In this document: positions 34,176 to 64,000 of the stretch, piece after piece
Layout of the letters: the number at the start of each line of letters is the position of its first letter
How positions within the stretch are numbered: the stretch's first letter is position 1
Assembly: GCA_016181765.1 (NCBI GenBank)
Contig: JACOYR010000004.1
Location: 35,320 to 99,319, forward strand
Source: Parcubacteria group bacterium
GTDB taxonomy: Bacteria > Patescibacteriota > Patescibacteriia > UBA2169
Direction: 5' to 3'
Length of the DNA stretch: 64,000 nucleotides
Notes under the pieces: generated by a model
The model's database searches: none
Told to the model about the DNA's origin: nothing
Seen by the model: the letters and a program-made list of their open reading frames with translations, nothing else
Position numbers and translations under genes: made by a program

Positions 34176-34197
34176 ATAATTTAGTTTAATGCCAAAT

Positions 34198-46849: not shown

Positions 46850-46854
46850 AAAGA

Positions 46855-46984: not shown

Positions 46985-49900
46985 TTACGGGCCGCCGACA
47001 GCTGCGCCGCGGGCCGGGTGCATGACCTGGTTCGGGTAGGTGACTCCGAAGTCCAGGAACCACTCATCCGGCTGGAAGAACTGCGCCGCCAGGATGCAGA
47101 CCATGTCCGCGGTCGGAATGGTTTCCTTGAACATGCTCCGGATCCTGACCGCTTCCGCGCCGCCTTCGGCAGTGTTCATAACTACATCATGGGCGTACGC
47201 GCACCAGTTGGCGAACGCCTGCACCGCGAGGTTTGAGGCCTCCCCGCACTCCAGGCCGCCTGCCTTCGCGCACCTCTCTATCCAGGATTCGTGCGCAGCC
47301 TGGTACCGCTTGTGCCGGGACACTAGGTCCAGGGCGTATGCCAACTTCTTTGCCCGAAGGCTCCGTTCCTCAAAACCTCCCAGGTGATTGATGAACCTAA
47401 CGTGCCACACCCCCCGGGCATCCTGGAACAGCGGGCACTCGGGGTGCATGGGCTCATCCGGGCCAAGGATCGCAACCCGGACTCCCTTCTCGGTTACGAA
47501 CGAGAGCCGCGCCCATGCCGCATCCGGATGCGCGGGATTGTATTCCGCGATACCCGGATTCAAAAGGAGCGCTGCAGCCGCGCGCCGGTGCCAGCGCGCG
47601 GTCTCCTCATCCGCGATCCGCGGGGCGTGCCGGTACCGGCCCAGGGGGAACACGGTCAGAGTCTCGGTGAATCCGCTCCGGTTGGTGTCGTCCCTCCGCT
47701 CCCGGGCTTCAGCGTTGATGGCTTCCTCAAGCACGGCATCGTCCTCGCACAAACTTGCGATTGCCGAGCTCGGCAGGGTGTCCACCTGCTTGAACACGAA
47801 CACAGCGGGAACATCCGCGTAGAATACGCGCACCTCGCCCCTGCTGAACCGGAGCGTTTCAACGAATCCGGCGAGCGATCGGGGGCACACCAGCACCGTG
47901 CGCCGGGTCGGGCCCTCAAGTTCCTGCAGACCCTGCTCGTCGATGCGGATGAACGGCTCGGACTCCCGCAGGTGGTCTGCGATGAACTGCCGCGCGTCCG
48001 GGTGCCTGGTGAAGAGATCCTCAAACGATACGGAAATACCGTCCGGCACGCCGATGATATCCTCAAACGGGCAATCCGTGCGCGCAAGCGCGTCCGGCGA
48101 ATCCCAGGAGAACATGGACGCAAAGGCAGATGCAACCGCGCCCTCATCCACAACCAGCGAAGCCGCAAGCGCCTGGTCGTCCGGGAACAGCGAAAGCCGA
48201 ACCGCCGACTTCTCGGCGCGGCCCTGCACGAGCGCTTTCTCCACCTCATCGCGCGCGCGGCCAACTTCCGCGGCGAGATCATCGCGCGCCGCCGTAAAGA
48301 GCGCAATCTGCGCGTCCAGCTCCGCACACACCAGGCCGCGGAGCGCAGCCATTTTGGCGGTGAGCATATGCCGGAGCACGGCTCCCGCAATGGTGCTGAT
48401 CCCTTGGACCATGGATGATACTGCATCATTCAGGTCCTTGTCGGCTTTCGCGCGCGCGGAAGCGATAGCCGGGGATGGTATATTGAAGAGCGCCCGAAAC
48501 CATCCCGGTTGCAAGGCCTCGGCCACAGCATGGGAAGACTTCGCGTCCACAACAGCCGAGCCGGCGCTGATCGCGGCAGATCTGTCCGCGGACAGGAAGT
48601 GGTCCACGGGCCTCTGCTCGGTTCCCTCTCGCGAGTCAAGGGACACCCGAGCCGCAACAAGCGCATCCAGAACGCGGAGCACTCCCATATTCGGAAGCGC
48701 ATTGCGGACCCGCGTTCGCAGATCTGTGATGCGGTCGCCCGCAATCCGAAACACTTCTGCTTCCGGCAATTGGGCATCCACGAACTCGGGGATGGACCGG
48801 ATTGCAGCGACCGTTGCCAAACCGGTTGCCGCGGGATCGTGGATCAGATCCTCCCGAAGCTTGATCTGGTCAAAGACCGGCGCCAGGGACGCGCCCTCGT
48901 TAGCCGAGCGCATCACCCGCTGTTCCCACTGCTCTATGGTCCGCCGGGCGCCGGCTTGCGTAATCGGAGCCGCGAGCGCGGCCGGCTCCGAACCCGGATT
49001 CCCCTCGCGCATGCGGCCAAGCACTGCCGCGCGCTTGCCGAGCGCCGCGATCCGCGGCAACTCGCGCCAGAGCTCGCACACGTGCAGCGCGATAGAGCTC
49101 CACACGAACGGCATGCGCATGGCAGCCGGAACCGCCTTGGCCATGTCCTCGTGCAGCTCAACCGCGAGGAACGATGCCAGTTCCGGAACCTGGGACAAAT
49201 AGTACAGGTAGTCAGCAACCATCCGCTGGGCGTCCTCAAACGAGAGCGCCTGGTCCTTGTCGTTCTTGCCTTCCACCAGAATGATCTGGCCCAGGCAGCC
49301 GGGCTCCACATCCTCGGAAAACCCCGGAAGCAAACCGCCGAAGTGGGGATGGTCTGGATCCGTGCCCAGGAGCACCAACCGGTCCCAGATGCGCGCTGCC
49401 GCAGCCATGATGATCTTGTGCCTGCGGTCGCGCTGGGGATCCCCGGTGATCGGGTACAGCTCCGGCCCCAAGACAATGAGGCGCTGGATCAGCCCGGGGT
49501 TCATCTGCCACCTCCACGCCGCGTGCATGATCGCGGATGCGAGGCCCGTCCCCCCGGTTCCGGCCACGTAGCTGACCTCGCGATCAGCTGACGCGAGCGA
49601 CCGGTCCGCGGAGTCAAACGAGGCATCCACAAATGCGAGCCACTGGGTCACGTGCTGGCGCTCCATGGCGTTCAGCGCAGCCGCAATCACGGGCTGCTTG
49701 TCCACGCCCGAACGCCCTAGGTTGCACCCCGGAAGCCCGTGCCGGGACTGGAGGAACTGAAGCGGCAGATCACGCTCCCACTCCCTCTCATGCTGCCCAA
49801 ACACGGCAGTAAAGTTGGTGACCGACCTGCCCAGGACGTACTCCCTAAGCCAGGGCGAGCGCCGAGTCCGGGATAACAGCTTGTTATTGTTGAGGCAGGC

Positions 49901-50134
49901 GTCTACTGCTCCGATCCGTACCTGCCGGCTGCGGCGCGGGTTTAACCGCAGCATTTGGTCCACCTGCACACCGACCAAGCTGCCCGCGCCGCCGCAGAAC
50001 TGCATCACGTGCCTTCTGTACCGGGTGTCGGCCGCCTCGTTGGCGGGCTCCGCGGCAACAACCGGCTCATGGCGCTCTGGCGCGCCCGCACCCGGACTTT
50101 CGTCCACTGCGGCCGCAACGATTGTGTCTGCCAT
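46985..50134 (-). CDS. large (1049 aa) protein with N-terminal FtsZ/tubulin-superfamily-like GTPase motifs and ~700 aa alpha-helical C-terminal extension
   Basis: T1-like FCGGAGSLVG, T2-like IGAVDACLNN, T3-like GLPGCNLGRSG, T4-like SYVAGTGGTGLASAI and a T7-like LSFEDAQ. Start ATG at 50134 overlaps the stop of the upstream vWA gene by 1 nt (TGATG). SD AGGAGG. Family assignment is inference. Confidence 0.5.
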   Translation of the reverse strand: MADTIVAAAVDESPGAGAPERHEPVVAAEPANEAADTRYRRHVMQFCGGAGSLVGVQVDQMLRLNPRRSRQVRIGAVDACLNNNKLLSRTRRSPWLREYVLGRSVTNFTAVFGQHEREWERDLPLQFLQSRHGLPGCNLGRSGVDKQPVIAAALNAMERQHVTQWLAFVDASFDSADRSLASADREVSYVAGTGGTGLASAIMHAAWRWQMNPGLIQRLIVLGPELYPITGDPQRDRRHKIIMAAAARIWDRLVLLGTDPDHPHFGGLLPGFSEDVEPGCLGQIILVEGKNDKDQALSFEDAQRMVADYLYYLSQVPELASFLAVELHEDMAKAVPAAMRMPFVWSSIALHVCELWRELPRIAALGKRAAVLGRMREGNPGSEPAALAAPITQAGARRTIEQWEQRVMRSANEGASLAPVFDQIKLREDLIHDPAATGLATVAAIRSIPEFVDAQLPEAEVFRIAGDRITDLRTRVRNALPNMGVLRVLDALVAARVSLDSREGTEQRPVDHFLSADRSAAISAGSAVVDAKSSHAVAEALQPGWFRALFNIPSPAIASARAKADKDLNDAVSSMVQGISTIAGAVLRHMLTAKMAALRGLVCAELDAQIALFTAARDDLAAEVGRARDEVEKALVQGRAEKSAVRLSLFPDDQALAASLVVDEGAVASAFASMFSWDSPDALARTDCPFEDIIGVPDGISVSFEDLFTRHPDARQFIADHLRESEPFIRIDEQGLQELEGPTRRTVLVCPRSLAGFVETLRFSRGEVRVFYADVPAVFVFKQVDTLPSSAIASLCEDDAVLEEAINAEARERRDDTNRSGFTETLTVFPLGRYRHAPRIADEETARWHRRAAAALLLNPGIAEYNPAHPDAAWARLSFVTEKGVRVAILGPDEPMHPECPLFQDARGVWHVRFINHLGGFEERSLRAKKLAYALDLVSRHKRYQAAHESWIERCAKAGGLECGEASNLAVQAFANWCAYAHDVVMNTAEGGAEAVRIRSMFKETIPTADMVCILAAQFFQPDEWFLDFGVTYPNQVMHPARGAAVGGP

Positions 50135-51918
50135 CAGATGTAAACCTCCTCGGTTGATAGTTCTTGAACTGTTGGTTGGATGACGGCGCTATCTGCCGCA
50201 ACACTGGGCACTACTGCCCCATCCACCTGGTATGCCTGATTCACTGCATCCAGGATCTGGACTGACTGGGCAACCAGGGGGTACATCTTCCCGGGCTGCA
50301 TCGGAACCCTGTCTATGCCCGCCGCACTCCCGGAAAGCGGGAACATGCTGCATGGAACGCGCGGGCCGATGTAGATGCCGTTCGGAGTCGGAACGACGGC
50401 GATGTTCCTCACCTCAAACCACGTGCTCCTGATCGGCCTCACTTGGCCATTGCAGGCAATGTGCCCCACAACACCGCTGGTATCCTGCGGCAGCGCTCGG
50501 CTGGTAACAGTATGCTCGCTCCAGGCCCGCATGCGCCGAGCAGCCACGAAAAGCATCGCAACAGCGAACACAAGGATCGCGGCAATGCCGAGGAGCTTGT
50601 CCGGAATCCAATCCCGGTACAGCCATGCCCGCCGCTCCGCGAGAATGGCAGGCCGGTTCCCACGCTCCGTAAGGCTCACGCTCCCATGCGGCACGAGCTT
50701 CACCTTGCACGGGACTGGCCGTGAGAGCGGCCAGAGCACGTCCCCGGGAGGCGGCGACTCTTCGTTGAATGCGACAAAGACCTCAACTTCTGCCTTGTCC
50801 GGAATCACGAGTCCCTCGGAAAACGGGATTGGCTCGCTTTCGGAACCGCGGATCTTCCAGAACCCGAGCACATGTGCGGCATCGCTTGAGTTCTCGGAAT
50901 CTGCAACTAGAACCGCAGTAAAAAGCTCGCCGGATGCCCGCGTTGGCGCATCCAGCAAAAGCTCATACACTCCGGCCAAGTACATCTCTCCAAGGCCGGA
51001 AACCAAAATCCGGGCCGGCTCGTTAAGATTTGCCCATGAGTAGGAGCCGTTCAGCTCCCGGTCAATGGCCTCAAACCGCTTGCGCACATCAGCCCAGGAT
51101 CCGGCCGGGTACACCGGGAAATCCGCATTCCCGAACAAGCTGCGCAGGTGCACCTCCCCTGGGTACTCCATATCGCGTGTGTTCACAGACACAAGCTCCA
51201 CCGAGAACATGCCTTTGCGTTCCTGCGGAACGCGGGACATGCACTCCTGGAGCGCTTCCTGGAAAAACCACGAATCCTGGCCGGCAGGCTCATCATTCCA
51301 GCCGTCTCCCACAATGGTCGCGTGGAACCGGATTCCGGACTCTTTCAACTCAATGAACCCGTTCTCCATGTCAGTCAGGAGCGGGAGCGCGTAGTTGGTG
51401 TACGCGGTTTCGGCTTTCCCGAAAGCGTGCCTGGTCAGGTAGTCCTTTACCATTGCGGCAAGTACTGCGCGCCCCGAGTCCGAGGCTGCCGTTGGCCAGG
51501 GCACATAGCTCGTACCCACCAGGCGCACGGTTACTTTGTTCGCGCCGGACACGGCAAGAATCCGGTCGCGGACAATTGCCGCGGCCTCGTCACGTTCCTC
51601 CTCTGAAAGCGAAGCCGAGATGTCCAAATACACCACCTCATGGTACGTGCCGTTGGGCGTGTTCCACCCAGGAACCTCAACGCCGCCGTGCACAGGCAAG
51701 GCTGATTCCGCCGCTGGCGCGGCGCGCTCAACCAAAGGCGCGCTTACACCGGCCGTATCACGATCCCACACCGTACGAACCGGAGGGACCATGGTCTCCC
51801 CGGTGTGCGATGGGTCATCATCCGGAACACCCATATTGGGGTCAAAACCGCACCCGAACACGGAAACAGTCCCTAACGCGGCAGCGCACAACGCCAAAAA
51901 CAACTTTCTCTCGCGCAT
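50134..51918 (-). CDS. von Willebrand factor A (vWA) domain membrane lipoprotein
   Basis: 594 aa. Lipoprotein signal LGTVSVFGC. MIDAS-like VVYLDISASL (DxSxS) with downstream T and D residues (IVGDGWND). TM helix LLGIAAILVFAVAMLFVAA at about aa 440 and a C-terminal domain. SD GGGAGGG 8 nt upstream of the ATG. Own promoter upstream. Confidence 0.55.
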   Translation of the reverse strand: MRERKLFLALCAAALGTVSVFGCGFDPNMGVPDDDPSHTGETMVPPVRTVWDRDTAGVSAPLVERAAPAAESALPVHGGVEVPGWNTPNGTYHEVVYLDISASLSEEERDEAAAIVRDRILAVSGANKVTVRLVGTSYVPWPTAASDSGRAVLAAMVKDYLTRHAFGKAETAYTNYALPLLTDMENGFIELKESGIRFHATIVGDGWNDEPAGQDSWFFQEALQECMSRVPQERKGMFSVELVSVNTRDMEYPGEVHLRSLFGNADFPVYPAGSWADVRKRFEAIDRELNGSYSWANLNEPARILVSGLGEMYLAGVYELLLDAPTRASGELFTAVLVADSENSSDAAHVLGFWKIRGSESEPIPFSEGLVIPDKAEVEVFVAFNEESPPPGDVLWPLSRPVPCKVKLVPHGSVSLTERGNRPAILAERRAWLYRDWIPDKLLGIAAILVFAVAMLFVAARRMRAWSEHTVTSRALPQDTSGVVGHIACNGQVRPIRSTWFEVRNIAVVPTPNGIYIGPRVPCSMFPLSGSAAGIDRVPMQPGKMYPLVAQSVQILDAVNQAYQVDGAVVPSVAADSAVIQPTVQELSTEEVYI

Positions 51919-51995
51919 TTCGGCATCCCTCCCGTGAATAGTGCGAGTGATTGCTTACTGATTGTCAATGTTCTGTTTTTGTTTGCTAGATGATA

Positions 51996-52024
51996 TTTAT
52001 ACTATATTATATTAGAATTGTCAA
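51996..52024 (-). promoter_or_regulatory. sigma70-like promoter for the vWA/GTPase-like operon
   Basis: Minus strand: TTGACA (52024..52019), 17 nt spacer, TATAAA (52001..51996). About 70 nt upstream of the vWA gene start. Confidence 0.5.
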
Positions 52025-52032: not shown

Positions 52033-52076
52033 AAAAAAAGAACCCTCTGCCTCTCAAAACCGAGAAAGACAGAGGG
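52033..52076 (-). terminator. Rho-independent terminator of the coiled-coil protein gene
   Basis: Minus strand: stem CCCTCTG..CAGAGGG followed by TTCTTTTTTTG. It lies 60 nt downstream of the 52139 stop. Confidence 0.6.
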
Positions 52077-52138
52077 TTTTGGACGTATGGCCAACAAACA
52101 ATAGCGAGTGTACAGAGTGAACAGCTACTGGGTGCGGC

Positions 52139-53881
52139 TCACTCCCTTGCCTTCGGGCGCGTTGCGCGTCCGCGCACCGGATGCGCTTCACGGCCATTGT
52201 CTTGCCCTGGACCCGATGTATCCGCAAGCCGTGCCGACTCGGGTGCCGGCTTGCCGCGCTCCAGCGCAGGCCGGGCTTCTCCGCCGAGCAGTGCGGCTGC
52301 GTCCAGGCGGAATCCATCCTGAATCCCGCGGTCCGACATGCCTGCCGCGCGCAAGGCAATGGCTGCCTGCACGCGAGTGCTCTCGCTGTTGATAAGCCCG
52401 GCGGCTTCATTGAGCCGCGCCCGGACAGCCGGAATCGTATTCGCGACAATAACGACGCGTGCCTGTATGTCCACTTCCGAGACGCGCCGCGCCACCTCGG
52501 CTTGCGCGTGGGCCTCAACCGCGTCCTTGAGCTCCTGGTCGCGCTGTGCGATCCCCTCCTCCAGACTCTTGAGGAGCGGCCGCACGAACTCTTCGCGCGC
52601 AACCTGGAGCACGATCAGAGTGAGCGCTTCGCGGTCAGCGCCTGGAATGCGGTCCAGAAACTCCTGGACTTTAGGACGCTGATCTTCTGTGCGCTTCTTC
52701 AGCCGCGCTTCTTCTGCCTCGAGGCTCGCGCGCTTCTCTTCCAGCTTCGCGATGAGTTCCGTGCGGTCATCAGGCGTGATTCGCGCATCATTCCTGACCT
52801 GCTGTCCGATGCTTGGAACGGACCCGAGGTCCGCCCTTTCAATCGCGCGGCCAAGGCCAGTAAGCGCGTTTGCGCGCTGCTTTTCCTTGAGCTCTGCCTC
52901 GCGTTCATCAAGCGCGTGGTAGAGCTCATCCTTGCGCTCCCGGGAAATCGCGGCAGCCGCCACGATTTCCCGCGTCGCCGCAACGTCGTCCGTGCCCTTG
53001 ACCGCGGCTGTGAGGTGTACCTCGGCGCGCTTCTCCCACGCGGCTATGAGCCGTGCCGCGTTCTCCGCGTCCAAGGCTCCCGTCTGGGCGCTCTCGGACA
53101 CACGGCCGCGAATCGGCCAGAACTTGTCCCGACCCTCGGAAGCGATGGACGCGCTGATCTCGCGAACCAGAGCTTCCTGCGCCTCCTCGCGCTTGCGGAT
53201 GTGCTCCGGCGGCCGGACATCAACCGTCACGTCCTTGAACGAAAACACGTTGCCCTCGTTCGCAAGCCCCGCAAGCGCGCCCTTCATAGCATCTCGAATC
53301 TCGCTTGCAAGCTGTGACTCCCGGGACACGCCTGCATGTCCCGGCAACCCGAGAACCCTGTGCTCGGAGTATGTCCGGCTGCCGAGAATCTCGGCAAACG
53401 GGCTTGTGAGCATGTCCCGAGCAGCCTGCCAATCCCCGGACAGGACGTACGGCAGGCCCTGCTGGGTGCGCGCGAGCAACGCAGGCATGCTGGCGACCTG
53501 GGCCGTGCCGCAGACTACCACGTCCAGTGGAATTGCCTCGCCCGCGCCAGGCTTGGTCGGAATGCCCGGGTAGATCCACTGGAAGCTGAACGTGTTCGTG
53601 TGTACCACAAATGGCATCATGCTGTCTATCGCCGGGCTCTCGCCCCGGGCGACGACCCGAAGCCCTGTCGGCGTCATCACGAGGAATGTGGCGCCGGCGC
53701 GCGAGAGCAAGCGCCTGCGGACCGGTGCCAATTTCGCGGCGAGCGATGCTCTCGGCGCCGTGATGATGAGGGGCACCGCACCAGACTGGTCACCCCTCCC
53801 CAGAAACTCCAGGTCCTCGGACACATTGACTCGGTCCAGCGTTGTGACGCTGGTCCCGGTTACTGCAATCTTCTGTGCCAT
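52139..53881 (-). CDS. hypothetical protein: N-terminal ~220 aa globular domain + long Glu/Arg/Ala-rich coiled-coil
   Basis: Start taken at ATG (MAQKIAVTG) preceded by AAGGAGGGG with 7 nt spacer. The ORF track starts 12 codons earlier at a TTG. No family recognised. Separately terminated from the downstream vWA operon. Confidence 0.55.
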   Translation of the reverse strand: MAQKIAVTGTSVTTLDRVNVSEDLEFLGRGDQSGAVPLIITAPRASLAAKLAPVRRRLLSRAGATFLVMTPTGLRVVARGESPAIDSMMPFVVHTNTFSFQWIYPGIPTKPGAGEAIPLDVVVCGTAQVASMPALLARTQQGLPYVLSGDWQAARDMLTSPFAEILGSRTYSEHRVLGLPGHAGVSRESQLASEIRDAMKGALAGLANEGNVFSFKDVTVDVRPPEHIRKREEAQEALVREISASIASEGRDKFWPIRGRVSESAQTGALDAENAARLIAAWEKRAEVHLTAAVKGTDDVAATREIVAAAAISRERKDELYHALDEREAELKEKQRANALTGLGRAIERADLGSVPSIGQQVRNDARITPDDRTELIAKLEEKRASLEAEEARLKKRTEDQRPKVQEFLDRIPGADREALTLIVLQVAREEFVRPLLKSLEEGIAQRDQELKDAVEAHAQAEVARRVSEVDIQARVVIVANTIPAVRARLNEAAGLINSESTRVQAAIALRAAGMSDRGIQDGFRLDAAALLGGEARPALERGKPAPESARLADTSGPGQDNGREAHPVRGRATRPKARE

Positions 53882-53984
53882 CACTTGCCCCTCCTTCAGG
53901 TGGGCGTACTTGCGCAAAGGTTAGGGTTGATTCAGCGAATTTGTACACAACACTGATTTTCAAATAACAACAAAACTACAGTTA

Positions 53985-54052
53985 GTTATACATAATTGCT
54001 TATTTTTGTCAAGTTTTTGCACATTGACAAATAAATAGAAATGTGATATTAA
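53985..54052. promoter_or_regulatory. divergent back-to-back promoters with an inverted-repeat putative operator
   Basis: Minus: TTGACA (54012..54007), 16 nt spacer, TATAAC (53990..53985), serving the coiled-coil gene. Plus: TTGACA (54024-54029), 17 nt spacer, TATTAA (54047-54052), serving the 54168 operon. The -35 boxes form TTGTCAA-N12-TTGACAA, a perfect 7 bp inverted repeat. Confidence 0.5.
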
Positions 54053-54167
54053 GACTAAAGAAATCTAACTCGGTCGTTGACAACCTATTATTTAGGATAC
54101 AACACAAACAAAATCACCTGACTTCCCGCAACTTCCACAGCGCAACTATTGCGAAGGAGATGATCGC

Positions 54168-54407
54168 ATGAACGCAGCAACAGCGCCTGGCCAAAGCCAG
54201 ACAGTGGAACAGGCCAGGGAACGCGCGCGCCAGAAAGCGGCGCAGATCACGGAACAGATGGCTGTGGCAAAGACCGCGGCCGCTGTCCGGGCTATCCTGG
54301 ACACCCTGCCCGGCGCAAACCAGGTCGGCGAACTTACGCCTGATGATTTGGCCAGGCTTACGGAGCATGGCCAGTCCCTGGAGCCGAGCCGACCCCAGCC
54401 GCAATGA
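54168..54407 (+). CDS. small hydrophilic protein (79 aa), first gene of plus-strand operon
   Basis: SD GAAGGAG 8 nt upstream. Stop overlaps the next gene start (ATGA). Ala/Gln-rich and helical. Confidence 0.5.
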   Translation: MNAATAPGQSQTVEQARERARQKAAQITEQMAVAKTAAAVRAILDTLPGANQVGELTPDDLARLTEHGQSLEPSRPQPQ

Positions 54408-54937
54408 CGAACAAGCGCGCGCACATCAAGCGCGTGCTCATCCGGTGCGGCGAGTTTGATCTCGCCCGCGCGCGGACCGTGGGCCTCGTCACGCCATTCC
54501 TGGGAACTAAGCCAAAGCGCTGGAGAAAAGAGCGCACAGGCGGGCTGCTGGACGGTCCGCAGTACCACGCGGAAAACCCGGACGACACACAAGAAATCCG
54601 GGATCACCTAAAGGCGCTCGCAGATACCCGGCGCAGAAGCATCAAGCGCGCGCGCCGATGGTTTTGCCTGTGCTCGCTCATACTACTCTTCGCGGGCCCG
54701 GTCCTGGTGATGCTTACCAAGGCTCCGGTCACCCGTCTAGATATCATCCCGTTCATTGTGCGCCATCCCTTCATGATGGCGGCAGTTCCGATCTCATTCG
54801 CGGCGATCCTCGCCGCGAACCGCATTCCAGGACATGGCATCGCGTGGATAGGGGCGCTCCAGGGAAACTGGATGGCCAAACTCTTCGCTATCACGGCCTG
54901 GATCTGGCTCTTCACCATGATACTCACCCACTCCTAG
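54404..54937 (+). CDS. membrane protein (3-4 TM), unknown function
   Basis: 177 aa. Translationally coupled to the preceding gene. Basic N-terminus then hydrophobic helices. Confidence 0.5.
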   Translation: MTNKRAHIKRVLIRCGEFDLARARTVGLVTPFLGTKPKRWRKERTGGLLDGPQYHAENPDDTQEIRDHLKALADTRRRSIKRARRWFCLCSLILLFAGPVLVMLTKAPVTRLDIIPFIVRHPFMMAAVPISFAAILAANRIPGHGIAWIGALQGNWMAKLFAITAWIWLFTMILTHS

Positions 54938-54951
54938 AAGCAGAGGCTACC

Positions 54952-55587
54952 ATGAATCAGCAACAGCGCGGAGGCCAAGGCCGCCGCAACAGAAACCGCG
55001 GAGGTGGCGGGCAGGGCGGCAACGCCCTGAACATCCCAGGTGTTCCGCAGCAGGTAATCAGGAACGCGCTGGACCAGATAGAGGTCGGCGAACTCGGAGA
55101 TGAAATCCTTGACCATCTGCAGGCAGACGGCCGAAGAGCTGAAGAGAGGCACAGGGCCGACATCGCCAAGATGGCCGCTGAAACCGATCGTGTCAAAGTA
55201 GAAACCGAAGCAAAGCGGGCTACGGACGCGAGGGCTGCCGAAAAAGATCGCAAAGAGGCGGAATCCGCGTCCAAGGCTTCGCGGCAGAAAGCGAACTTCT
55301 TGGTTGCGCAAGCCTTGTCCGAGTACCTTGCGAGCATCAACGGCATCACGGCGCTCGCAGAGCTCCATCGCAGGCGGATCACGGTCCAGTTCCTGGACAA
55401 ACTCACTCCGGCTGCATTGGAGCACTTCCGCGCCTCGCTCGGGCAGATGGCTCAAGAGGGCGCCGAAAACACGTCCGATAAAATCCAAAAAATACTTGCG
55501 CTACTCGGGAAAACCGAGAGCGACACCGAACGGTTCCGCATCGCATGTGCGCTCGGGCTCTTGCCCGAGCAGTACCAGAGGAGTTGA
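54952..55587 (+). CDS. hypothetical protein with N-terminal Arg/Gly-rich (RGG-like) segment and coiled-coil
   Basis: 211 aa from MNQQQRGGQGRRNRNRGGGGQGG. SD-like GCAGAGG upstream. The upstream part of the 309 aa track ORF overlaps the previous gene and is rejected. Confidence 0.5.
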   Translation: MNQQQRGGQGRRNRNRGGGGQGGNALNIPGVPQQVIRNALDQIEVGELGDEILDHLQADGRRAEERHRADIAKMAAETDRVKVETEAKRATDARAAEKDRKEAESASKASRQKANFLVAQALSEYLASINGITALAELHRRRITVQFLDKLTPAALEHFRASLGQMAQEGAENTSDKIQKILALLGKTESDTERFRIACALGLLPEQYQRS

Positions 55588-55589
55588 AG

Positions 55590-56288
55590 ATGAAAAAACT
55601 CAATGAGATATTCAACAAATTGTTTGAAGAGACGGTTGGCCAGGTTGGCGCGGGCTTTGTGAACCGGACCATCCTCGGAGGGAGCGGGGAACCGGTGCAG
55701 GTATCGGTTCCACGGATCTCGGGGCTGCATACGTTCCGCGCGGGCATTCTGCCGAGCCTCGGGCTTGCTGATGAAAGCGCGTTCGGCGGGGACATAGCCC
55801 TGTTCAATGAATGGGCCGCCAGACTCTACGGCACATCCGCAAATCCGGTCATTGCCGAGTTCATCGGGAAGTTGGTGCGCCTGCGCCAAACCGAGCCCTG
55901 GAGGGCAACACTCCTGCGCGTCATCATCACCAAGCATCCACACGAGGCCGCGCAGCGCCAGATACTCGTATTCCTCGCGAACAGCAGCGGGTACGACGAT
56001 TTCTACAACAGAGTCTGCATGCTCGTTCCGGAGAAGCAGTTGTCAACCAAAGCCGGCGAGTGGCTGCGCCGAAACGTCCTGAATTGGGGCGCCGTAAAGA
56101 AACACGCGCGCTCCGGCCGAGATTTCACTGTGCGGCACGCGCGGCGCGGCGACAGCTATGTCGCCCGCACCGCGGTACCCCCGGTCCGCGCAAAGCGCGT
56201 GGCGTGGAACGCAAGCCTGGATCGCACAGCGCGCCGCATTGAGCAGAACGGCGGCAGGCTCTCCACTAAGTGGTGGCTCCCCTTCTGA
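55590..56288 (+). CDS. hypothetical protein (232 aa)
   Basis: Start MKKLNEIF preceded by GAGGAG. It starts 3 nt after the previous stop. No family recognised. Confidence 0.5.
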   Translation: MKKLNEIFNKLFEETVGQVGAGFVNRTILGGSGEPVQVSVPRISGLHTFRAGILPSLGLADESAFGGDIALFNEWAARLYGTSANPVIAEFIGKLVRLRQTEPWRATLLRVIITKHPHEAAQRQILVFLANSSGYDDFYNRVCMLVPEKQLSTKAGEWLRRNVLNWGAVKKHARSGRDFTVRHARRGDSYVARTAVPPVRAKRVAWNASLDRTARRIEQNGGRLSTKWWLPF

Positions 56289-56320
56289 ACCCAACACACC
56301 AAAAACAAGGAGTAAGGACA

Positions 56321-58735
56321 ATGAGCGGACTTCTGAAAGAACTGCTGGAAATCCTCCTGGGATTCCTGCGGTTTGACTTCCGGGTCACGTGGGCAGTCGC
56401 ATCCGGCGCCGCCAGGCGCCTGTTTGTCTCCATCGGCATTGAGCTCATCGCCATCGTGGCCTTCGCCGCCCTGGCGCAGTTCAATCCGTACTGGTATCTG
56501 GCCTGCGCCGGTGCCACTCTGGCCATCTCCGTGTACCAGTACGCGTTTCTCGCGGCAATCACGATTCCCATGGCCGCGAATTTCGCGCTTGAGCATCAGC
56601 TCTCGCTGGTCCTGGTCCAGATTCTGGGTGCGGCCCAAGTGCCGCTCGCCAAAATCGCAACTGCGGTAGCCGAGTTCCGGGGGAAGATCGGCCAGATCAT
56701 CGCCCAGCCCGAAGGGGAAATCGGCGATTCCATCATGACGCTCCTCCTCCAAGTTGTAAGGCCATTGGAGCTGCCGAACGCCATCGTGAACCTGGCCGCG
56801 GATCCCATGATCGCGGTTATCAGGGCCGTGGACAAATCCATCCAGGAGCTGCCCGGAAAAACCTGGCAGCAAATCAAAAAGGTTGCCGGCCCGGTGCTCT
56901 CCGGCTTCCTGGTGTTCCAGTGGTTCAGTGTCGCCGGATGGGCGCTGCTCGCGGCGAGCCCGCCCGCCATCGTGTGGGCTCCGATATTCGCGGCAGCAGT
57001 CGGCGCGATTCTCACGCTGCTCGCGATTCCAAGCCGCAAAGAACAACACCCGCGCACGCGGTTTGAGAATGCCATGCTCTGGGTGCTCGGTGTGTCTCTC
57101 GTGTACGCAGCCTACATGTACTACGATGAATCGCTGTTCGTGCTCCCGCTGCTCGTGGTGCCGATCATGGCCGCACTCCTCTTTGCCCTCGCGTGTTGGG
57201 GATTGCGGTTTGGAGGCAGCATGCTGGTACTGGTTGTGGGTGTATGGGGCATTGTCTCGCCCCAGCACTGGCTCGCAACCCGGAACTCGTTCGGCGGCTT
57301 GAACCAGAGCGCGCCCGAGTACGCGGAAGTGCGCAATCCCTGCCAGGCGTACCAGCCTGGCCGCGGCAGGACCTACGTCCGTGATCCGACCATCAAGCCC
57401 CTCAAAGAGGGAGATGTATTGCGGCTCGCGCGCAGCTCTTCGTTTGAGTCTCCGACAAGCGATTCAAAAGACAACCTCTGGCTGGAAATGGTTGGAGTGG
57501 TTGATGTTGCCACGGGTATGGTTGACCCAGGCGCCAAGAACTTCTGGGTACCCTTGGGCTACGTCAAGCAAACCGGCTGGGATCCTGCGGAGGTGGCAGT
57601 CGGCGCAACCGGAGGCGCGCAGGGCGCCTTGCCCTACAATCCCTACGCCATCTGGGACCAGACCGCAGAACCGCCGGTCAAAGTGGCAAGCTTCAACCCG
57701 GGGTTGGACGCGCCCGCCGAAGTGCGGCCCAACACCACTCCGCTCATGCACCCGCTCGGCGACTACCGCATCACGCCCATTGTCTACTATGGCACCATCC
57801 GGCAACGGGACGGCATGCGGAACTGGAGCGATGTGTTCCCGGCTTCCGTTGGCACGCCAGTGCGCGCTGGCGCGGCAGGAACCGTGATCGCCGTGCATCC
57901 GGCCAAACGCCACGAGGTAAGCGCTATCGTGCTTCGCCACGACAACAGTGAACGAGGCACGTTCTACACGCGCTACCTGGAGGTGGGCACGATCCTGGTT
58001 GCCGTGGGAAACACAGTCAGCCAGGGAGATACTATCGCGCGATCCGACGGCAGGCCCGGAGCCAGCGGTACAATGAGCGACGCGCAAGAACCCCACATCG
58101 GGTTTGAGGTGTGGGCCGTCGTAGAGGGTCCCAACACCTGGTTTCCGGTGGACACTATGCGGTGGATCAATGGAGTGGCCGCCCAGAAAGTGGTGATAGC
58201 GCCCCAGGAATTCACCGCCTACCCCCTGTACCCCATCCCCGGAACCGAAGACGAGTATGAGGTTCCGGTCAACCGGCCCGTAAGTATTCTCGCGGACCGC
58301 GTACGGTTGGGGAATCTAGTGGACATCCGGGTTCTCTCTCCAGAAGCGGGCTATGTCATCAACGGCCGGGAGGAACACCGCGCCTACTTCCGGGAGCCCA
58401 TCGCGCTGTTGGGCAAACCGTACCCCAAGGTCAAGGGTACGGACGCGTTCGTGTGGCAGACCTACTCCTTCTACACGGACCACGAACAGGCAAAGTACGG
58501 CCAGCTCATTGCCGGCATCAACGGCTTTGAGACTGCGTATGGCCTGCACTACGGCGCAACGAGGTTCACGGCGGAGGAAGACGGCGCCGTCTGCATCGGC
58601 ATCAACGAGGCGGTGGGCATCCGCGCGAATAACGAGCGCTTGGTGGATGCGTCCGCCGACAACTACGTCAGGGACTCAACCCGTGATGTGGTCCGCGTCA
58701 AGGTCGCCATCAGGCGCGGCGGTTCCGCAATCTGA
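56321..58735 (+). CDS. polytopic membrane protein (about 9-10 TM) with C-terminal degenerate M23/LytM-like peptidase domain
   Basis: About 805 aa from MSGLLKELLE (SD AAGGAG). The N-terminal ~330 aa are hydrophobic. The C-terminal region GDYRITPIVYYG..VGTPVRAGAAGTVIAVH..GTFYTRYLEVGTILVAVGNTVSQGDTIARSDGRPGASGT..PHIGFEVW follows M23 topology but lacks the full HxH (HIGFE), so it is probably non-catalytic. Confidence 0.55.
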   Translation: MSGLLKELLEILLGFLRFDFRVTWAVASGAARRLFVSIGIELIAIVAFAALAQFNPYWYLACAGATLAISVYQYAFLAAITIPMAANFALEHQLSLVLVQILGAAQVPLAKIATAVAEFRGKIGQIIAQPEGEIGDSIMTLLLQVVRPLELPNAIVNLAADPMIAVIRAVDKSIQELPGKTWQQIKKVAGPVLSGFLVFQWFSVAGWALLAASPPAIVWAPIFAAAVGAILTLLAIPSRKEQHPRTRFENAMLWVLGVSLVYAAYMYYDESLFVLPLLVVPIMAALLFALACWGLRFGGSMLVLVVGVWGIVSPQHWLATRNSFGGLNQSAPEYAEVRNPCQAYQPGRGRTYVRDPTIKPLKEGDVLRLARSSSFESPTSDSKDNLWLEMVGVVDVATGMVDPGAKNFWVPLGYVKQTGWDPAEVAVGATGGAQGALPYNPYAIWDQTAEPPVKVASFNPGLDAPAEVRPNTTPLMHPLGDYRITPIVYYGTIRQRDGMRNWSDVFPASVGTPVRAGAAGTVIAVHPAKRHEVSAIVLRHDNSERGTFYTRYLEVGTILVAVGNTVSQGDTIARSDGRPGASGTMSDAQEPHIGFEVWAVVEGPNTWFPVDTMRWINGVAAQKVVIAPQEFTAYPLYPIPGTEDEYEVPVNRPVSILADRVRLGNLVDIRVLSPEAGYVINGREEHRAYFREPIALLGKPYPKVKGTDAFVWQTYSFYTDHEQAKYGQLIAGINGFETAYGLHYGATRFTAEEDGAVCIGINEAVGIRANNERLVDASADNYVRDSTRDVVRVKVAIRRGGSAI

Positions 58736-58837: not shown

Positions 58838-58892
58838 GTCCCCCGCCTATTGATAGGTCAAGTCTGATCTCTCAAGCGGGGGATCTTTTTTT
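58838..58892 (+). terminator. Rho-independent terminator after the plus-strand operon
   Basis: Stem CCCCCGC..GCGGGGG with an internally structured loop, followed by ATCTTTTTTT. Confidence 0.6.
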
Positions 58893-60019: not shown

Positions 60020-61714
60020 TTAGGCGCCCCAGAGCCACCTCTGCTTGGAGAGCCATCTGCTGCGGCCCGCGAATTCAATAAACACGCGCGTGATGATGAT
60101 GGCGCTGAACATGGAAACCAGGACCCCGATGCCGAGCGTAATGGCAAAGCCCTTTACCACGCTGGAACCGAACCACGCGAGGATCAGGCACGTGATGAGC
60201 GTTGATGCGTTTGAGTCGCGGATGGAATTCCACGCGCGGTCAAAGGCAACCCCAACCGCGTGCCCGAACGCATTGCCCAGGCGCAGCTCTTCCCGGAGCC
60301 GCTCAAAAATCAAAACATTCGCGTCCACGGCCATGCCGATGGAGAGCAAGAACCCGGCAATGCCGGCCAAGGTCAGGGTGACGGGAATGAGCTTGAAAAA
60401 CGAAAACACGATTGCCGCGTACCACACGAGCGCGAGAACGGCGAGCAAGCCCGCGGCCCGATAGATGCCGAGCATGAGGAGCCCTACGAGCGCGAATCCG
60501 ATTAAGCCCGCGGTAATGCTCTTTGCAACCGAGGCAGTGCCAAGCGTGGGGCCCACGGTCTGCTGGGAAATGAGGTTAATGGGCACGGGCAATGCCCCGG
60601 CGTTCAAGCGTTCCACGAGCTCGCGCGCCTCGGGAATAGTGAAATTTCCGGTGATGACCGCCTGGCCGCCCGGGATCCGGTTCTGCACCACGGGCGCGGA
60701 AATCAAACCTCCGTCAAGAAAAATGCCAATGCGCTTTCCCACGTTTTTGTCCGTGAGCTCTTCAAACAGCCTGGCTCCCTCATCATCAAACTGCAAGCCG
60801 ACCTGGCTGGCCCCGGAGTAGCTGTCAAACTGCACTTCACTGCGATTGAGCTGCTTGCCGCCGAGCTCGGTTTGGGCCCAGGGCTGGTAGTCCGGCACGT
60901 CCCCTTCCAGGCTCTGGGTGCGGAACAGGATGTGCCGTGCGCGCACCTCTTCCGCTTCAAAACCCGTATCATCCGTAACCACGCGCGATTCCAGGCGCTG
61001 GATGATGTGGTACCCGAACTCGGTTTCAACGGGCTCAAGCGTGGTTTCGCCTTCCCCGACAAGCTCGCCATAGAGCACGTCCCCGAAGGGCTTCACTAAA
61101 AGTTCACGCCGCATGAAACCCAAATCCCCGCCCGCTTGCGCGCTGCCCGGGTCCTCGGAGAGTTCAGTCGCAAGCTCCGCAAAGTTCTGGCCTTGCGCAT
61201 CTATGATTTTCTGGATGGTTTCTTCGGCTTTCTTGAACTGGGAAGCGTTGAACTGCTCGCGCTTTGCCCGTTCTTCCGCGCTTACGGGCACTGGTTCCGG
61301 AGCAATGGCTTCGGTCTTAAATTCCAAGAGCGGGGTTGCGCCGATCTGGCGAATGGCTTCGTTGACATCAAACACGCCGGCAAGCTCCACAATGATGCGC
61401 AGGTGCTCACCAACTTTCGCGGTCTGCACCACGGGCTCGGAAACGCCCAGGGCATTGACTCTCGCCTCTATGACGTCGCGCACTCCGGAAATCGCGGTCT
61501 CGGCGTCATCCAGCCCAACCTGGGACGTGTCAGCCTCATAGACGAGATGCGCGCCTCCCTGCAAATCAAGCCCCAGGTGGGTCCTGAACCGCTCAAACCA
61601 GTACTTTGCCGGCCATTTCGCGGGGAGCGTGTCAAGAAAAATAGACCCGGAAATAAATCCAAGGACTATGATGAGCGCGAATAGTATCCAAACTTGTTGC
61701 CGGGTGCTAGCCAT
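60020..61714 (-). CDS. secD: protein translocase subunit SecD
   Basis: 564 aa. N-terminal TM, large periplasmic domain (LGLDLQGG), C-terminal six TM helices. Directly upstream of secF. Confidence 0.85.
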   Translation of the reverse strand: MASTRQQVWILFALIIVLGFISGSIFLDTLPAKWPAKYWFERFRTHLGLDLQGGAHLVYEADTSQVGLDDAETAISGVRDVIEARVNALGVSEPVVQTAKVGEHLRIIVELAGVFDVNEAIRQIGATPLLEFKTEAIAPEPVPVSAEERAKREQFNASQFKKAEETIQKIIDAQGQNFAELATELSEDPGSAQAGGDLGFMRRELLVKPFGDVLYGELVGEGETTLEPVETEFGYHIIQRLESRVVTDDTGFEAEEVRARHILFRTQSLEGDVPDYQPWAQTELGGKQLNRSEVQFDSYSGASQVGLQFDDEGARLFEELTDKNVGKRIGIFLDGGLISAPVVQNRIPGGQAVITGNFTIPEARELVERLNAGALPVPINLISQQTVGPTLGTASVAKSITAGLIGFALVGLLMLGIYRAAGLLAVLALVWYAAIVFSFFKLIPVTLTLAGIAGFLLSIGMAVDANVLIFERLREELRLGNAFGHAVGVAFDRAWNSIRDSNASTLITCLILAWFGSSVVKGFAITLGIGVLVSMFSAIIITRVFIEFAGRSRWLSKQRWLWGA

Positions 61715-61940
61715 GATGCTGTTTCATCTCAAAATCTTCCAAAACATCCCCTTCAGAGAGCCCTTTCCCTTTGAGCGCCTCGCGTACGGTTCGCGCGCCC
61801 GCGAGGAATGTATCCTTTTTCAACAACAAAATTCGGTGCTTAAGGGCATCCTCAACAAACGACTTCTCGCTCGCATAGCCATGCGCTTTTGCAGCGGAAG
61901 AAACCTCTTTTTCCAATGTTTCTGATAAAGTAACAACCAT
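61707..61940 (-). CDS. ribbon-helix-helix (CopG/Arc-like) small protein, possible antitoxin/regulator
   Basis: 77 aa. Predicted beta-strand VVTLS followed by two helices (ETLEKEVSSAAKAHG / SEKSFVEDALKHRI). Overlaps the secD start by 8 nt. Confidence 0.4.
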   Translation of the reverse strand: MVVTLSETLEKEVSSAAKAHGYASEKSFVEDALKHRILLLKKDTFLAGARTVREALKGKGLSEGDVLEDFEMKQHHG

Positions 61941-61954
61941 ATGAGCTTATAGTA

Positions 61955-62182
61955 TCATAATATGCACTTACCGGCAATGTACTCAAATCTTTTTACGTTG
62001 CGGCCGTCCACTTCCACTTCTCCCATAAACATCGCCAAAGGCCGCACCCATAAACGGGACGCTGTATTGTTATAAAGCGCTTCATACACCACAAGGTCTT
62101 CCAGGGTTTCGCTGTGCTTTGCCGGCCCGATAACCCGATACTCGCCGCCCTTGTAGTGCCTGTATATTCCTAATGCAAGCAT
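61955..62182 (-). CDS. DUF1653-family small protein
   Basis: About 75 aa from MLALGIYRHYKGGEYRVIG..YEALY..W.RP..F...VEVDG, the DUF1653 hallmark (YRHYKGGEY). Confidence 0.6.
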   Translation of the reverse strand: MLALGIYRHYKGGEYRVIGPAKHSETLEDLVVYEALYNNTASRLWVRPLAMFMGEVEVDGRNVKRFEYIAGKCIL

Positions 62183-62183
62183 G

Positions 62184-62792
62184 TTATTTCCTTCCGATAA
62201 TCTGCAGCCAAGTGGTTTTATGCATTGGCGTGGCAGATTCAAATACTGCTTCCATACCAAGTTCTTTTAGATAGCCGCGCAATTCTTCCTTGGTAAAATA
62301 ACTGAAAAACCGTTCGTATTGGTATCCATAACCCTCCTCAACCACAACCTGTTCCTCGTCCTGCCCCTCCCACTTCTCTTTGACTGCAATGTAGAGATGT
62401 CCGCCTTTTTTCAATCGGCTGGCCAGGCCTTTCAGTACGGCAATGACTTCTTTTTTTGGAATGTGCAGAAGTGAAGCTTGGCTAAAAATTCCATCAAACT
62501 CCCGCTCAAGCGTTCCGGCATCTTTCATGTCTATCACTAAAAACTCAACACCCGGAACGTCCCGCTTGGCGATTTCAATCAGCTTATCGGAAAAATCAAT
62601 GCCTAAAACACACAGTCCTTTTTCCGAAAGATATTTTGATTTAACACCCGCGCCGCAACCCACGTCCAGCACAGAACCGCCTTTCGGCAAAAACGAAACA
62701 AACGCATCTGTTCCCTCAACCCACCATGAATCACTCTTATGATCTTTATACCAATCTTCCGCGATTCGATTGTAGGTGTCTTTAAGATTCAT
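62184..62792 (-). CDS. class I SAM-dependent methyltransferase
   Basis: 202 aa with motif I VLDVGCGAGVKSKYL and a post-I acidic residue. Rossmann-fold MTase. Confidence 0.8.
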   Translation of the reverse strand: MNLKDTYNRIAEDWYKDHKSDSWWVEGTDAFVSFLPKGGSVLDVGCGAGVKSKYLSEKGLCVLGIDFSDKLIEIAKRDVPGVEFLVIDMKDAGTLEREFDGIFSQASLLHIPKKEVIAVLKGLASRLKKGGHLYIAVKEKWEGQDEEQVVVEEGYGYQYERFFSYFTKEELRGYLKELGMEAVFESATPMHKTTWLQIIGRK

Positions 62793-63213
62793 GCGAGCCG
62801 CCTATCTTTGTTAAAAATTCAGTCGGCGCAACAATGGGAATGCCATCAAATGACCCCAACTCCAGGAGGTGGCGGTCTCCGGAAACGATAAAGGAAGCCC
62901 GGGCCGCAAGCGCGCAGGATAAGAACTTGTCGTCTTTTGGATCCTCGGCAACCACATCAATCGGAAACCGCTCTCCCGGAACGTACTCTGCTACCTCCCA
63001 AAACTCCTCTACCAAAGCCTGCGGCGTTTTTCCGATTGACGCAAATACGCGCGTGAACTTTGGCCGGTTGAGCACGTCCAGCAGCTCATCCATTGTATCC
63101 CGCGACACGCACAGGGTAATGACTCCTGACCGCGCAAACTCAAAAATGTCGCTCGTGCTCCCGCGCCACAGCAACGCTGATACCAAAACGTTCGTGTCCA
63201 GCACTACGCGCAT
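62782..63213 (-). CDS. PIN-domain nuclease (VapC-like toxin)
   Basis: 143 aa. MRVVLDTNVLVSAL plus downstream acidic residues (D..E..D) with PIN spacing. Confidence 0.75.
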   Translation of the reverse strand: MRVVLDTNVLVSALLWRGSTSDIFEFARSGVITLCVSRDTMDELLDVLNRPKFTRVFASIGKTPQALVEEFWEVAEYVPGERFPIDVVAEDPKDDKFLSCALAARASFIVSGDRHLLELGSFDGIPIVAPTEFLTKIGGSHES

Positions 63214-63221
63214 ACCAACTG

Positions 63222-63467: not shown

Positions 63468-63520
63468 AGTATCTGTATGATACCAATTGTTAGGGGTGGT
63501 GTCCAGCGTGCGCAAGCATA

Positions 63521-64000
<480 letters not shown>

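Follow-up and report, generated by a model that had tools for sequence, protein, structure and literature searches.

Related systems and the seven-gene locus

Operons that place FtsZl1 (Pfam family Tubulin_2, PF13809) next to a gene for a vWA protein are predicted to encode membrane-remodelling complexes (Makarova & Koonin 2010, PMC2875224; see also PMC9871819), and FtsZl1 proteins carry family-specific inserts between their T1 and T4 loops (PMC2875224). Degenerate LytM domains, in turn, act as activators or adaptors, not as peptidases (PMC8416486, PMC12505981). The locus described here lies in a 64,000-nt stretch of DNA from a Parcubacteria group bacterium (contig JACOYR010000004.1), hereafter the window, to which all coordinates refer unless another locus is named. 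It is a block of seven genes, about 12 kb in length, with a gene order that is kept across very divergent lineages and with almost no detectable relatives elsewhere. These seven genes form one module. Our reading, to which we assign a probability of about one half, is that this conserved membrane-associated module is transcribed as three sigma70-type units and encodes an envelope-spanning complex.

Open reading frames (ORFs) were listed and start codons inspected to place the gene boundaries, the overlaps and the ribosome-binding sites, with the following result.

46985-50134, minus strand: gene for a soluble protein of 1049 aa, with an N-terminal alpha/beta domain, a helical stalk (residues ~360-640) and a C-terminal alpha/beta domain
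50134-51918, minus strand: gene for a vWA-like lipoprotein of 594 aa, with a lipobox, a metal ion-dependent adhesion site (MIDAS) motif, a transmembrane helix and a cytoplasmic tail
52139-53881, minus strand: gene for a protein of 580 aa ('cc'), with a beta-rich N-domain ending in DVRPPE, then a long charged helical region
54168-54937, plus strand: gene AB, 311 aa in its intact form, with a cytoplasmic helical N-part followed by 3 transmembrane helices
54168-54407, plus strand: gene A as read in this assembly, 79 aa
54404-54937, plus strand: gene B as read in this assembly, 177 aa
54952-55587, plus strand: gene C, 211 aa, RGG/Q-rich at the N-terminus, helical and charged in the middle and conserved in its C-terminal part; matches no family
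55590-56288, plus strand: gene D, 232 aa, for a soluble protein whose C-terminal tail is basic; matches no family
56321-58735, plus strand: gene E, 804 aa, with transmembrane helices, a degenerate LytM/M23 domain (residues 506-598) and a beta-rich C-terminal part

The plus-strand genes are closely packed, the gene for protein E being the last of them, and on the minus strand the stop codon of the vWA gene overlaps the start of the 1049-aa gene by 1 nt (TGATG). Type IV pilus genes and CorA flank the locus on one side, SecF and SecD on the other. For the 580-aa gene the start is the ATG at 53881, which is served by a GGAGG site and matches the N-termini of the orthologues in the alignment; a TTG at 53917 was dropped as a start in its favour on these two grounds. 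With this start the divergent spacer measures 286 nt, not the 250 nt given in a preliminary description of this DNA, which was right in calling it AT-rich (GC 0.38).

Among described systems, the FtsZl1-vWA operons appear to be the closest class, and the partner set found here would be new to it. In both, the gene for a large divergent protein, FtsZ-like in those operons and possibly so here, that is extended by helical or coiled-coil parts and at its C-terminus stands beside a vWA gene, the vWA protein combines an intact MIDAS with a signal peptide or transmembrane segments (here a lipobox, a helix and a 1-nt gene overlap), lineage-specific membrane proteins are present, and function has been assigned by prediction only. 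The inserts between T1 and T4 of FtsZl1 have a possible counterpart in the glycine-rich motifs of the 1049-aa protein, which are ~145 residues apart. There are also differences. PF13809 and PF00091 have no match among the six members of the 1049-aa family, even at E <= 1; the polytopic degenerate-LytM protein, the SPFH-like protein, AB, C and D are undescribed as partners in FtsZl1-vWA operons; the frequent partners of FtsZl1, namely Ser/Thr kinases, P-loop GTPases and OmpA, are absent from this locus; and the layout here is a fixed divergent one with three promoters.

Conservation and rarity of the module

Five loci are complete, namely that of the window, those of two related genomes (L001 and L006) and those of two very distant relatives (L009 and L010). 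The seven-gene divergent order is conserved in every locus long enough to judge, including L009 and L010, where the locus proteins are ~20-25% identical (~20-24% for the 1049-aa homologues) and where Dus flanks replace the pil and SecDF genes. It is this recurrence of the same layout in distant genomes, with different flanks, that makes the seven genes one module. The two divergently transcribed gene sets had earlier been suggested to belong to a single unit, and their independent occurrence, which was looked for, is seen in no recovered locus; for the accompanying suggestion that the unit is related to secretion we found no evidence. In the window and in L006 the locus sits between the pil genes and SecDF; the SecDF side is also seen in L001, and the pil side in L011, where the locus ends past the vWA gene. 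No integrase or transposase adjoins the locus.

Profiles made from the close orthologues recover the positional partners in L009 and L010, strongly for E (its membrane domain included), for the vWA protein and for the 1049-aa protein, more weakly for C and D, and marginally for the 580-aa protein. Relatives beyond these loci are extremely few. When 1.84 billion representative proteins were searched exhaustively by HMMER with the profile of the 1049-aa protein, only five hits were returned. Word-indexed searches, whether for E or for the 1049-aa protein, gave three proteins, all of them close orthologues, and nothing new when a six-sequence profile was used; a scan of 185,579 species genomes found two loci only, both already known, and a scan of viral contigs found no relative. 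The module also diverges faster than its surroundings, with locus proteins 42-64% identical between the window and L001 as against 81-87% for the neighbouring SecD and SecF.

The taxon labels attached to some of these sequences clash: L007 and L008, GTDB-representative records of the same contigs as L002 and L006 that hold orthologous loci, are labelled 'uncultured Gammaproteobacteria bacterium', whereas protein E of the window and the partial homologue P0007 carry the NCBI label 'Parcubacteria group bacterium', and one of the two labels is likely wrong.

A single AB gene with two deletions

The products of A and B match the two ends of a single protein in L001 and L006 (297 and 310 aa, respectively). 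The window differs from the intact form by two deletions, one of 88 nt between 54384 and 54385, which shifts the frame and creates an ATGA overlap, and another of 78 nt, in-frame, between 54755 and 54756. These two gaps are all that separates the window from four assemblies made independently from other sequencing runs (L012-L015), the identity being otherwise 100% over as much as 12 kb; L012-L014 contain an intact single ORF of 311 aa, and L015 covers the second gap only. In its native form the plus operon has four genes, AB-C-D-E. The 'five-gene operon' with ATGA-coupled genes for proteins of 79 and 177 aa, as it had been seen before, is a product of the 88-nt deletion in this assembly, the 311-aa gene being intact elsewhere. 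The deletions are either a strain variant or an artefact in the assembly of this metagenome-assembled genome, and the gene count of the operon depends on them. There is a methodological lesson in this, in that a seemingly translationally coupled pair of small genes can stem from a deletion in one assembly.

Protein E and its degenerate LytM domain

Residues 506-598 of protein E match the Pfam family Peptidase_M23 (PF01551) with 41.2 bits, against a gathering score of 28.7, and three orthologues score 35.4, 28.7 and 43.1 bits; NCBIfam adds weak matches to ShyA, MepM, DipM, SpoIIQ and ActS. The M23/LytM fold, which had been recognized by eye, is thus matched by profile above the Pfam threshold. 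An alignment of the window protein to ShyA shows HxxxD replaced by RNWSD and HxH by HIG; the YxHL motif reads YLEV, with Glu instead of His, and two of the three zinc ligands are gone. The replacement of HxH had been noted correctly, but the loss is not confined to this second His motif, as the first one is lost too. The orthologues have taken other routes. P0002 and P0003 have both His motifs lost or deleted; that of L006 retains HWGSD and HLH and has YMEV in the YxHL motif; that of L009 retains HQGID and has FLH for HxH; and that of L010 has YLGVD, retains YGHL, and has TLY for HxH. At least one catalytic residue is missing in each of the six family members, and which one it is differs by lineage. 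This pattern of differing losses indicates that the LytM domain is non-catalytic, as the preliminary description had it, and would have been retained for its fold rather than for catalysis.

The N-terminal third of E is hydrophobic, with segments between residues 34 and 314 that are predicted, by hydropathy and the positive-inside rule, to form about 7 transmembrane helices (range 7-9), fewer than the 9-10 counted before. An N-in topology is suggested by the charged loop 239-249 and the basic N-terminus, and hydropathy further predicts a conserved cytoplasmic loop of ~100 aa (~85-191) and an extracytoplasmic C-terminal half of ~490 aa. The AlphaFold model of E, made from a 3-sequence alignment, has a mean predicted local distance difference test score (pLDDT) of 40, and neither the model nor the Foldseek results obtained with it were used. 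In the orthologue of L006 (1027-3267 of that locus) a stretch of ~45 residues is missing where the window protein has two transmembrane helices (~255-300); if a helical hairpin was lost in this way, the topology would be unchanged.

E shares with EnvC/FtsEX, NlpD, ActS, DipM and SpoIIQ an M23/LytM fold in which catalytic or zinc-binding residues have been lost. It differs from these factors in that one chain joins a membrane domain of ~7 helices, the LytM domain and, after it, beta-rich C-terminal domains, in the absence of LysM, of a coiled coil, of an FtsX partner and of a nearby amidase, and in that the lost residues vary among orthologues. The proposed arrangement resembles FtsEX-EnvC in its logic, where a signal passes from a cytoplasmic NTPase, by way of a membrane domain, to a degenerate LytM domain (PMC12505981).

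Other proteins of the module

The 594-aa protein has a lipobox (G22-C23); residues 437-465 are predicted to form a transmembrane helix, and the ~130 aa beyond it a cytoplasmic tail. Its MIDAS motif consists of D99-x-S101-x-S103, T174 (+75) and D205 (+31), with canonical spacing; DxSxS and the aspartate of DG are intact in all six orthologues, and the threonine in five of them. The Pfam families VWA and VWA_2 do not match the window protein or its close orthologues at E <= 1. The thresholds are 23.8 bits for VWA and 27 for VWA_2; the distant orthologue of L009 reaches 21.6 and 22.3 bits, respectively, and that of L010 reaches 19.4 bits against VWA_2, all of these matches being sub-threshold, with E = 2e-4 to 1.6e-3; the homology of both proteins to the 594-aa protein is shown by the profile searches. 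The intact MIDAS, together with the sub-threshold matches of the two orthologues, bears out the vWA assignment, which we regard as a well supported prediction. The lipobox, the transmembrane segments and the distribution of charge agree with the topology proposed for the vWA protein and for E.

For the 1049-aa protein, neither Pfam nor NCBIfam gave a match, and the sequences of the PDB, searched with single sequences and with profiles, gave nothing relevant. An AlphaFold model built on six sequences has an N-terminal alpha/beta domain, a helical stalk that includes one helix of ~85 residues, and a C-terminal alpha/beta domain. When this model is compared with the PDB by Foldseek, the high-probability local matches are mostly to TubZ, CetZ, FtsZ and tubulins (probability 0.84-1.0), with TubZ 4ei7 matched at a probability of 1.00 and a root mean square deviation of 4.5 over 196 columns; the matches of the stalk, to dynamin-like proteins and alpha-pore-forming toxins, are non-specific, and a Foldseek comparison with viral structures was uninformative. 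Two glycine-rich motifs follow predicted strands in the N-terminal part of the protein. GGxGS (48-52) comes after strand 41-47, G48 and G49 being conserved and the full motif invariant only in the four closest members, and GTGGTG (192-197) comes after strand 185-191, with G194, G195 and G197 invariant in all six. The two motifs are compatible with T1 and T4 of tubulin/FtsZ, yet they are non-specific, and no T7 loop was identified. It is plausible, at roughly even odds, that the 1049-aa protein is a tubulin/FtsZ-like nucleoside triphosphatase (NTPase).

The 580-aa protein is possibly an SPFH-like scaffold, which we offer as a lead. Its likeness to SPFH/Band 7 proteins (HflK/C, QmcA, flotillins) consists in an alpha/beta domain that extends to DVRPPE and is followed by a charged helical region, and in an N-terminal transmembrane hairpin seen in the orthologues of L009 and L010; when the protein is aligned by hhalign with E. 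coli QmcA, HflK and HflC (P = 0.0036), DVRPPE falls in register with DVRPPA of QmcA. The window clade differs from SPFH proteins in that it has no membrane anchor, and the 580-aa protein in that it has no match to Band_7 or to PDB sequences and an hhalign probability of 9%.

Proteins C and D have no family match in the window or among the orthologues. The N-terminus of C is RGG/Q-rich in the window clade, and D ends in a basic tail. A match of the C-terminus of C to GAAD (E = 0.14) was dropped, as it was not reproduced in the orthologues, and a match of C to MCM2_N was discounted as a reflection of the low-complexity charged region. Searches of Pfam, NCBIfam, PADLOC and PHROGs with the eight ORFs of the window locus gave the M23 domain only, and the single-sequence and profile searches of the PDB gave nothing relevant for the vWA and 580-aa proteins either.

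Promoters, terminators and leader boxes

The regulatory elements of the two intergenic regions and of the ends of the locus are as follows; P_cc, P_AB and P_vwa denote the predicted promoters of the 580-aa gene, of the plus operon and of the vWA gene.

53941-53952, strand not assigned: 12-mer TTGTACACAACA in the leader of the 580-aa gene, invariant across the window, L001 and L006
53985-53990, minus strand: -10 hexamer TATAAC of P_cc, 16 nt from the -35 and within a block that is identical in 54 of 55 nt between the window and L001
54005-54012, minus strand: left arm TTTGTCAA of the inverted repeat; read on the minus strand it contains the -35 TTGACA (54012-54007) of P_cc
54024-54031, plus strand: right arm TTGACAAA of the inverted repeat, containing the -35 TTGACA (54024-54029) of P_AB
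54044-54052, plus strand: extended -10 TG-a-TATTAA of P_AB, exactly 17 nt past the -35; TGn and a hexamer at 17 nt are also found in L001, L006, L009 and L010
54072-54083, plus strand: downstream box GGTCGTTGACAA, within the plus-operon 5' leader, its TTGACAA 53 nt past the -35; candidate operator
52041-52078, minus strand: strong intrinsic terminator after the 580-aa gene, with a 15-bp stem and a T7 run (-25.6 kcal/mol, z = -4.5)
51996-52024, minus strand: promoter P_vwa, TTGACA (52024-52019), 17 nt, TATAAA (52001-51996)
51962-51973, minus strand: downstream box GAACATTGACAA, within the vWA-gene leader, its TTGACAA 56 nt past the -35
46853-46900, minus strand: terminator-like hairpin after the 1049-aa gene, with a 20-bp stem and a T run
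58866-58892, plus strand: terminator-like hairpin after gene E, with a T7 run

The divergent region contains a perfect inverted repeat of TTGACA-type hexamers, TTTGTCAA-N11-TTGACAAA, at 54005-54031, with arms of 8 nt and a spacer of 11 nt (not 12, as first reported); it occurs once in the 64 kb of the window, as against 0.00 expected from shuffles. The arms belong to two back-to-back promoters of the sigma70 type, and the early recognition of these is confirmed by comparison of the loci, for in all five complete ones both arms are TTGACAAA, the spacing to the -10-like hexamer is 16-17 nt, and TGn is present. The arrangement is kept even between loci whose proteins share only ~20% identity. The 55-nt block over the minus-strand promoter is identical in 54 positions between the window and L001, compared with 56-72% identity at the DNA level in the neighbouring genes, which argues that the promoters are real, constrained elements; a generic promoter scan missed P_cc and P_AB because neither -10 hexamer ends in T. 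Rfam finds no RNA family anywhere in the window, and hence nothing marks the conserved intergenic block as a known RNA; nor was a small ORF seen in it by inspection. Known back-to-back divergent sigma70 promoters look much the same, with an outward-facing pair of TTGACA hexamers ~11 bp apart, -10 elements at 16-17 nt, and one TGn. What sets the present pair apart from the ordinary ones is that the hexamers are lengthened to TTGACAAA on both sides in all loci, and that the leaders hold extra copies of TTGACAA.

Between the 580-aa gene and the vWA gene there are a terminator and a separate promoter, P_vwa. A hairpin with a T-run is found at the equivalent position in L001, L006, L009 and L010, and the order of terminator and P_vwa recurs in these four loci as well. 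Given this arrangement, the divergent region is predicted to drive directly only the 580-aa gene on the minus strand, and the vWA and 1049-aa genes to be a unit of their own; the promoter region is thus not shared with these 'GTPase/vWA' genes, as the preliminary description had assumed. The overall layout of three promoters and three terminators is kept across the five loci.

The extra leader copy of TTGACAA lies ~42-56 nt beyond the -35, often with GGNC(N) before it. At P_AB it is present in the window, L001, L006 and L009; at P_vwa in the window, L001 and L009, and with one mismatch in L006 and L010; and at P_cc in L009 only. The 12-mer GGTCGTTGACAA of the window P_AB leader recurs identically in the P_vwa leader of the distant L009, and 5 of the 13 copies of TTGACAA in the 64-kb window fall within the 506 nt of the two intergenic regions. 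TTGnCAA is a 7-bp palindrome by itself. A role of these boxes as second promoters was ruled out by inspection, there being no -10-like hexamer at 16-18 nt. Since GGNCNTTGACAA, allowing one mismatch, is not significantly enriched across the window (7 found, 5 expected), the case for the leader box relies on its position across loci and not on counts; the TTGnCAA boxes of the leaders are the best candidates for an operator specific to this system.

Proposed function and alternative explanations

We infer the function of the module from topology and domain content only. P_cc would transcribe the 580-aa gene up to its terminator, P_vwa the gene of the vWA lipoprotein along with the 1049-aa gene that is coupled to it in translation, and P_AB the genes AB-C-D-E; co-regulation, if there is any, would more likely come about through promoter overlap or through the recurring TTGnCAA box of the leaders. 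The proteins would assemble into a complex that spans the envelope. Outside the membrane it would present the MIDAS-containing vWA domain and the non-catalytic LytM domain, the latter being held by the polytopic protein E and binding peptidoglycan, or else a hydrolase or a partner protein, rather than cleaving. On the cytoplasmic side, tails and loops would link the vWA protein and E to the 1049-aa protein, possibly a tubulin/FtsZ-like NTPase with a helical stalk, and to a scaffold that is possibly SPFH-like. Such a system would couple a nucleotide-dependent or scaffolding element of the cytoplasm to events at the cell wall or surface, much as has been predicted for the FtsZl1-vWA operons. A bolder form of the proposal seems to us rather unlikely: an undescribed envelope-spanning apparatus of the Parcubacteria and the wider candidate phyla radiation (CPR), with a new, highly divergent branch of the tubulin/FtsZ superfamily that carries a helical stalk, an SPFH-like scaffold, an extracellular MIDAS-vWA lipoprotein and a polytopic protein whose LytM domain has turned from enzyme to binding module, serving attachment to or contact with host cells or lineage-specific envelope remodelling, its three promoters tied together by a TTGnCAA box specific to the system.

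Several observations weigh against an envelope-spanning complex of this composition. The M23 domain is the sole component that exceeds a curated family threshold. The model of the 1049-aa protein has a pLDDT of 63 and a predicted template modelling score of 0.39, and residues 222-348 are unreliable in it; its best tubulin-type match in the PDB has a Foldseek E-value of 0.086, nothing reaches E <= 1e-3, and two Rossmann folds of UDP-glycosyltransferases match it equally well. Alignment of the N-terminal domain with E. coli FtsZ by hhalign is not significant (P = 0.55), and all six family members fail to match Tubulin (PF00091) and Tubulin_2, as noted above. The label 'tubulin-like' that was given to this gene at the outset is suggestive at most. 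The SPFH-like assignment of the 580-aa protein, too, is only suggestive, with its hhalign probability of only 9% and the missing Band_7 and PDB matches. For E, the topology and the domains other than LytM come from hydropathy alone, its structural model being unusable. Finally, AB is disrupted in this assembly, which, should the deletion prove real, may point to a module in decay in this strain.

Three other explanations bear on parts or on the whole of these observations. The geometry of the repeat had been taken for that expected of a dimeric repressor, and a palindromic operator TTTGTCAA-N11-TTGACAAA, at which such a repressor silences both divergent transcripts together, would account for arms that extend past TTGACA to 8 nt (TTGACAAA) identically in all five loci and for the uniqueness of the repeat within the window; the extra TTGACAA boxes in the leaders make a factor that binds TTGnCAA conceivable. 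However, any outward-facing pair of consensus -35 hexamers yields an inverted repeat by construction, and no repressor is needed to explain it. The spacer between the arms is 11, 11, 14, 10 and 11 nt in the five loci and is unconserved in sequence, so that the half-sites land on different helical faces, which argues against a rigid dimer that bridges both arms. Direct control by the repeat could not extend to the vWA and 1049-aa genes, since a separate promoter serves these, and neither Pfam nor NCBIfam detects a helix-turn-helix or any other DNA-binding domain in the locus proteins, a regulator encoded elsewhere being possible. We consider the operator improbable and read the 'palindrome' as two consensus -35 hexamers that point outward, not as a dedicated dimer operator. 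Two outward-facing consensus -35 boxes can, as a general lesson, mimic a palindromic operator.

Pairings of vWA domains and NTPases are known in predicted conflict systems, and the NTPase, vWA and membrane proteins of the module might be the parts and effectors of an anti-phage or inter-microbial conflict system, and not of envelope housekeeping or of a surface apparatus. The extreme sparsity of the module (five hits among 1.84 billion representatives), the divergence of its proteins at a much faster rate than SecD and SecF (42-64% against 81-87% identity to L001) and the different genomic neighbourhood in L009 and L010 would fit a conflict system. Yet none of the eight window ORFs matches PADLOC at E <= 1, PHROGs recognizes the M23 domain only and the viral contigs hold no relative, there is no recognizable effector, the only enzyme-like domain lacking catalytic residues in six of six members, and the chromosomal position between pil and SecDF is constant (window and L006; in part L001 and L011), with no adjacent integrase or transposase. 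We think such a role quite unlikely. It is similarly doubtful that, in a narrower form of our own reading, E acts like a fused FtsX-EnvC, in which the 1049-aa protein, as a nucleotide-dependent partner in the cytoplasm, drives a conformational change through the membrane domain and the degenerate LytM domain activates a separate peptidoglycan amidase during division or cell separation. Catalytically inactive LytM factors do regulate other hydrolases (PMC8416486), the domain of E resembles the known activators, with the weak NCBIfam matches to ActS, DipM, SpoIIQ and MepM/ShyA, and its conserved cytoplasmic loop of ~100 aa could take such an input. No amidase gene, however, is found in or beside any of the loci, the membrane domain of E has no similarity to FtsX that Pfam or NCBIfam would detect, the module is far too rare for a general division factor, and the vWA protein, the SPFH-like protein, C and D are given no role. 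An envelope-spanning complex that links cytoplasm and wall is the reading we retain.

Neighbouring genes

On the pilus side, CorA (45908-46849) lies between the pilus genes and the 1049-aa gene. It is absent in L006 and L011, where only a small gene of 119 or 135 aa is found between PilO and the 1049-aa gene (L006 13306-13665, L011 5013-5420). On the other side, SecD (60020-61714; L001 13662-15356; L012 8700-10394) has internal Pfam hits to peptidyl-prolyl isomerases of the parvulin type (Rotamase, Rotamase_3), an unusual fusion or insertion. Downstream of SecD, at 61707-63536, there are genes for a DUF1653 protein, an S-adenosylmethionine methyltransferase and a PIN_3 protein with a small ORF, as annotated from the identical L012; the last two may be a toxin-antitoxin pair.

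Farther away, the region 28000-37300, between MraY and pilB, is an island of low GC (0.37-0.42, against ~0.57 around it) with all genes on the minus strand. They encode a Bro-N protein, a zinc-ribbon protein, a secreted SNase+Excalibur nuclease, a DUF6804 protein and several orphans, and the island was probably acquired horizontally.

Implications

Bacteria of the candidate phyla radiation have tiny genomes, and their cell biology is largely unknown. If the 1049-aa protein is indeed an NTPase of the tubulin/FtsZ type that is coupled to an adhesin-like vWA protein and to a non-catalytic LytM membrane protein, the FtsZl1-vWA class would gain a new family and a new set of partners, and the module would be a concrete, testable candidate for the way in which such organisms connect the cytoplasm, the wall and the surface of the cell.

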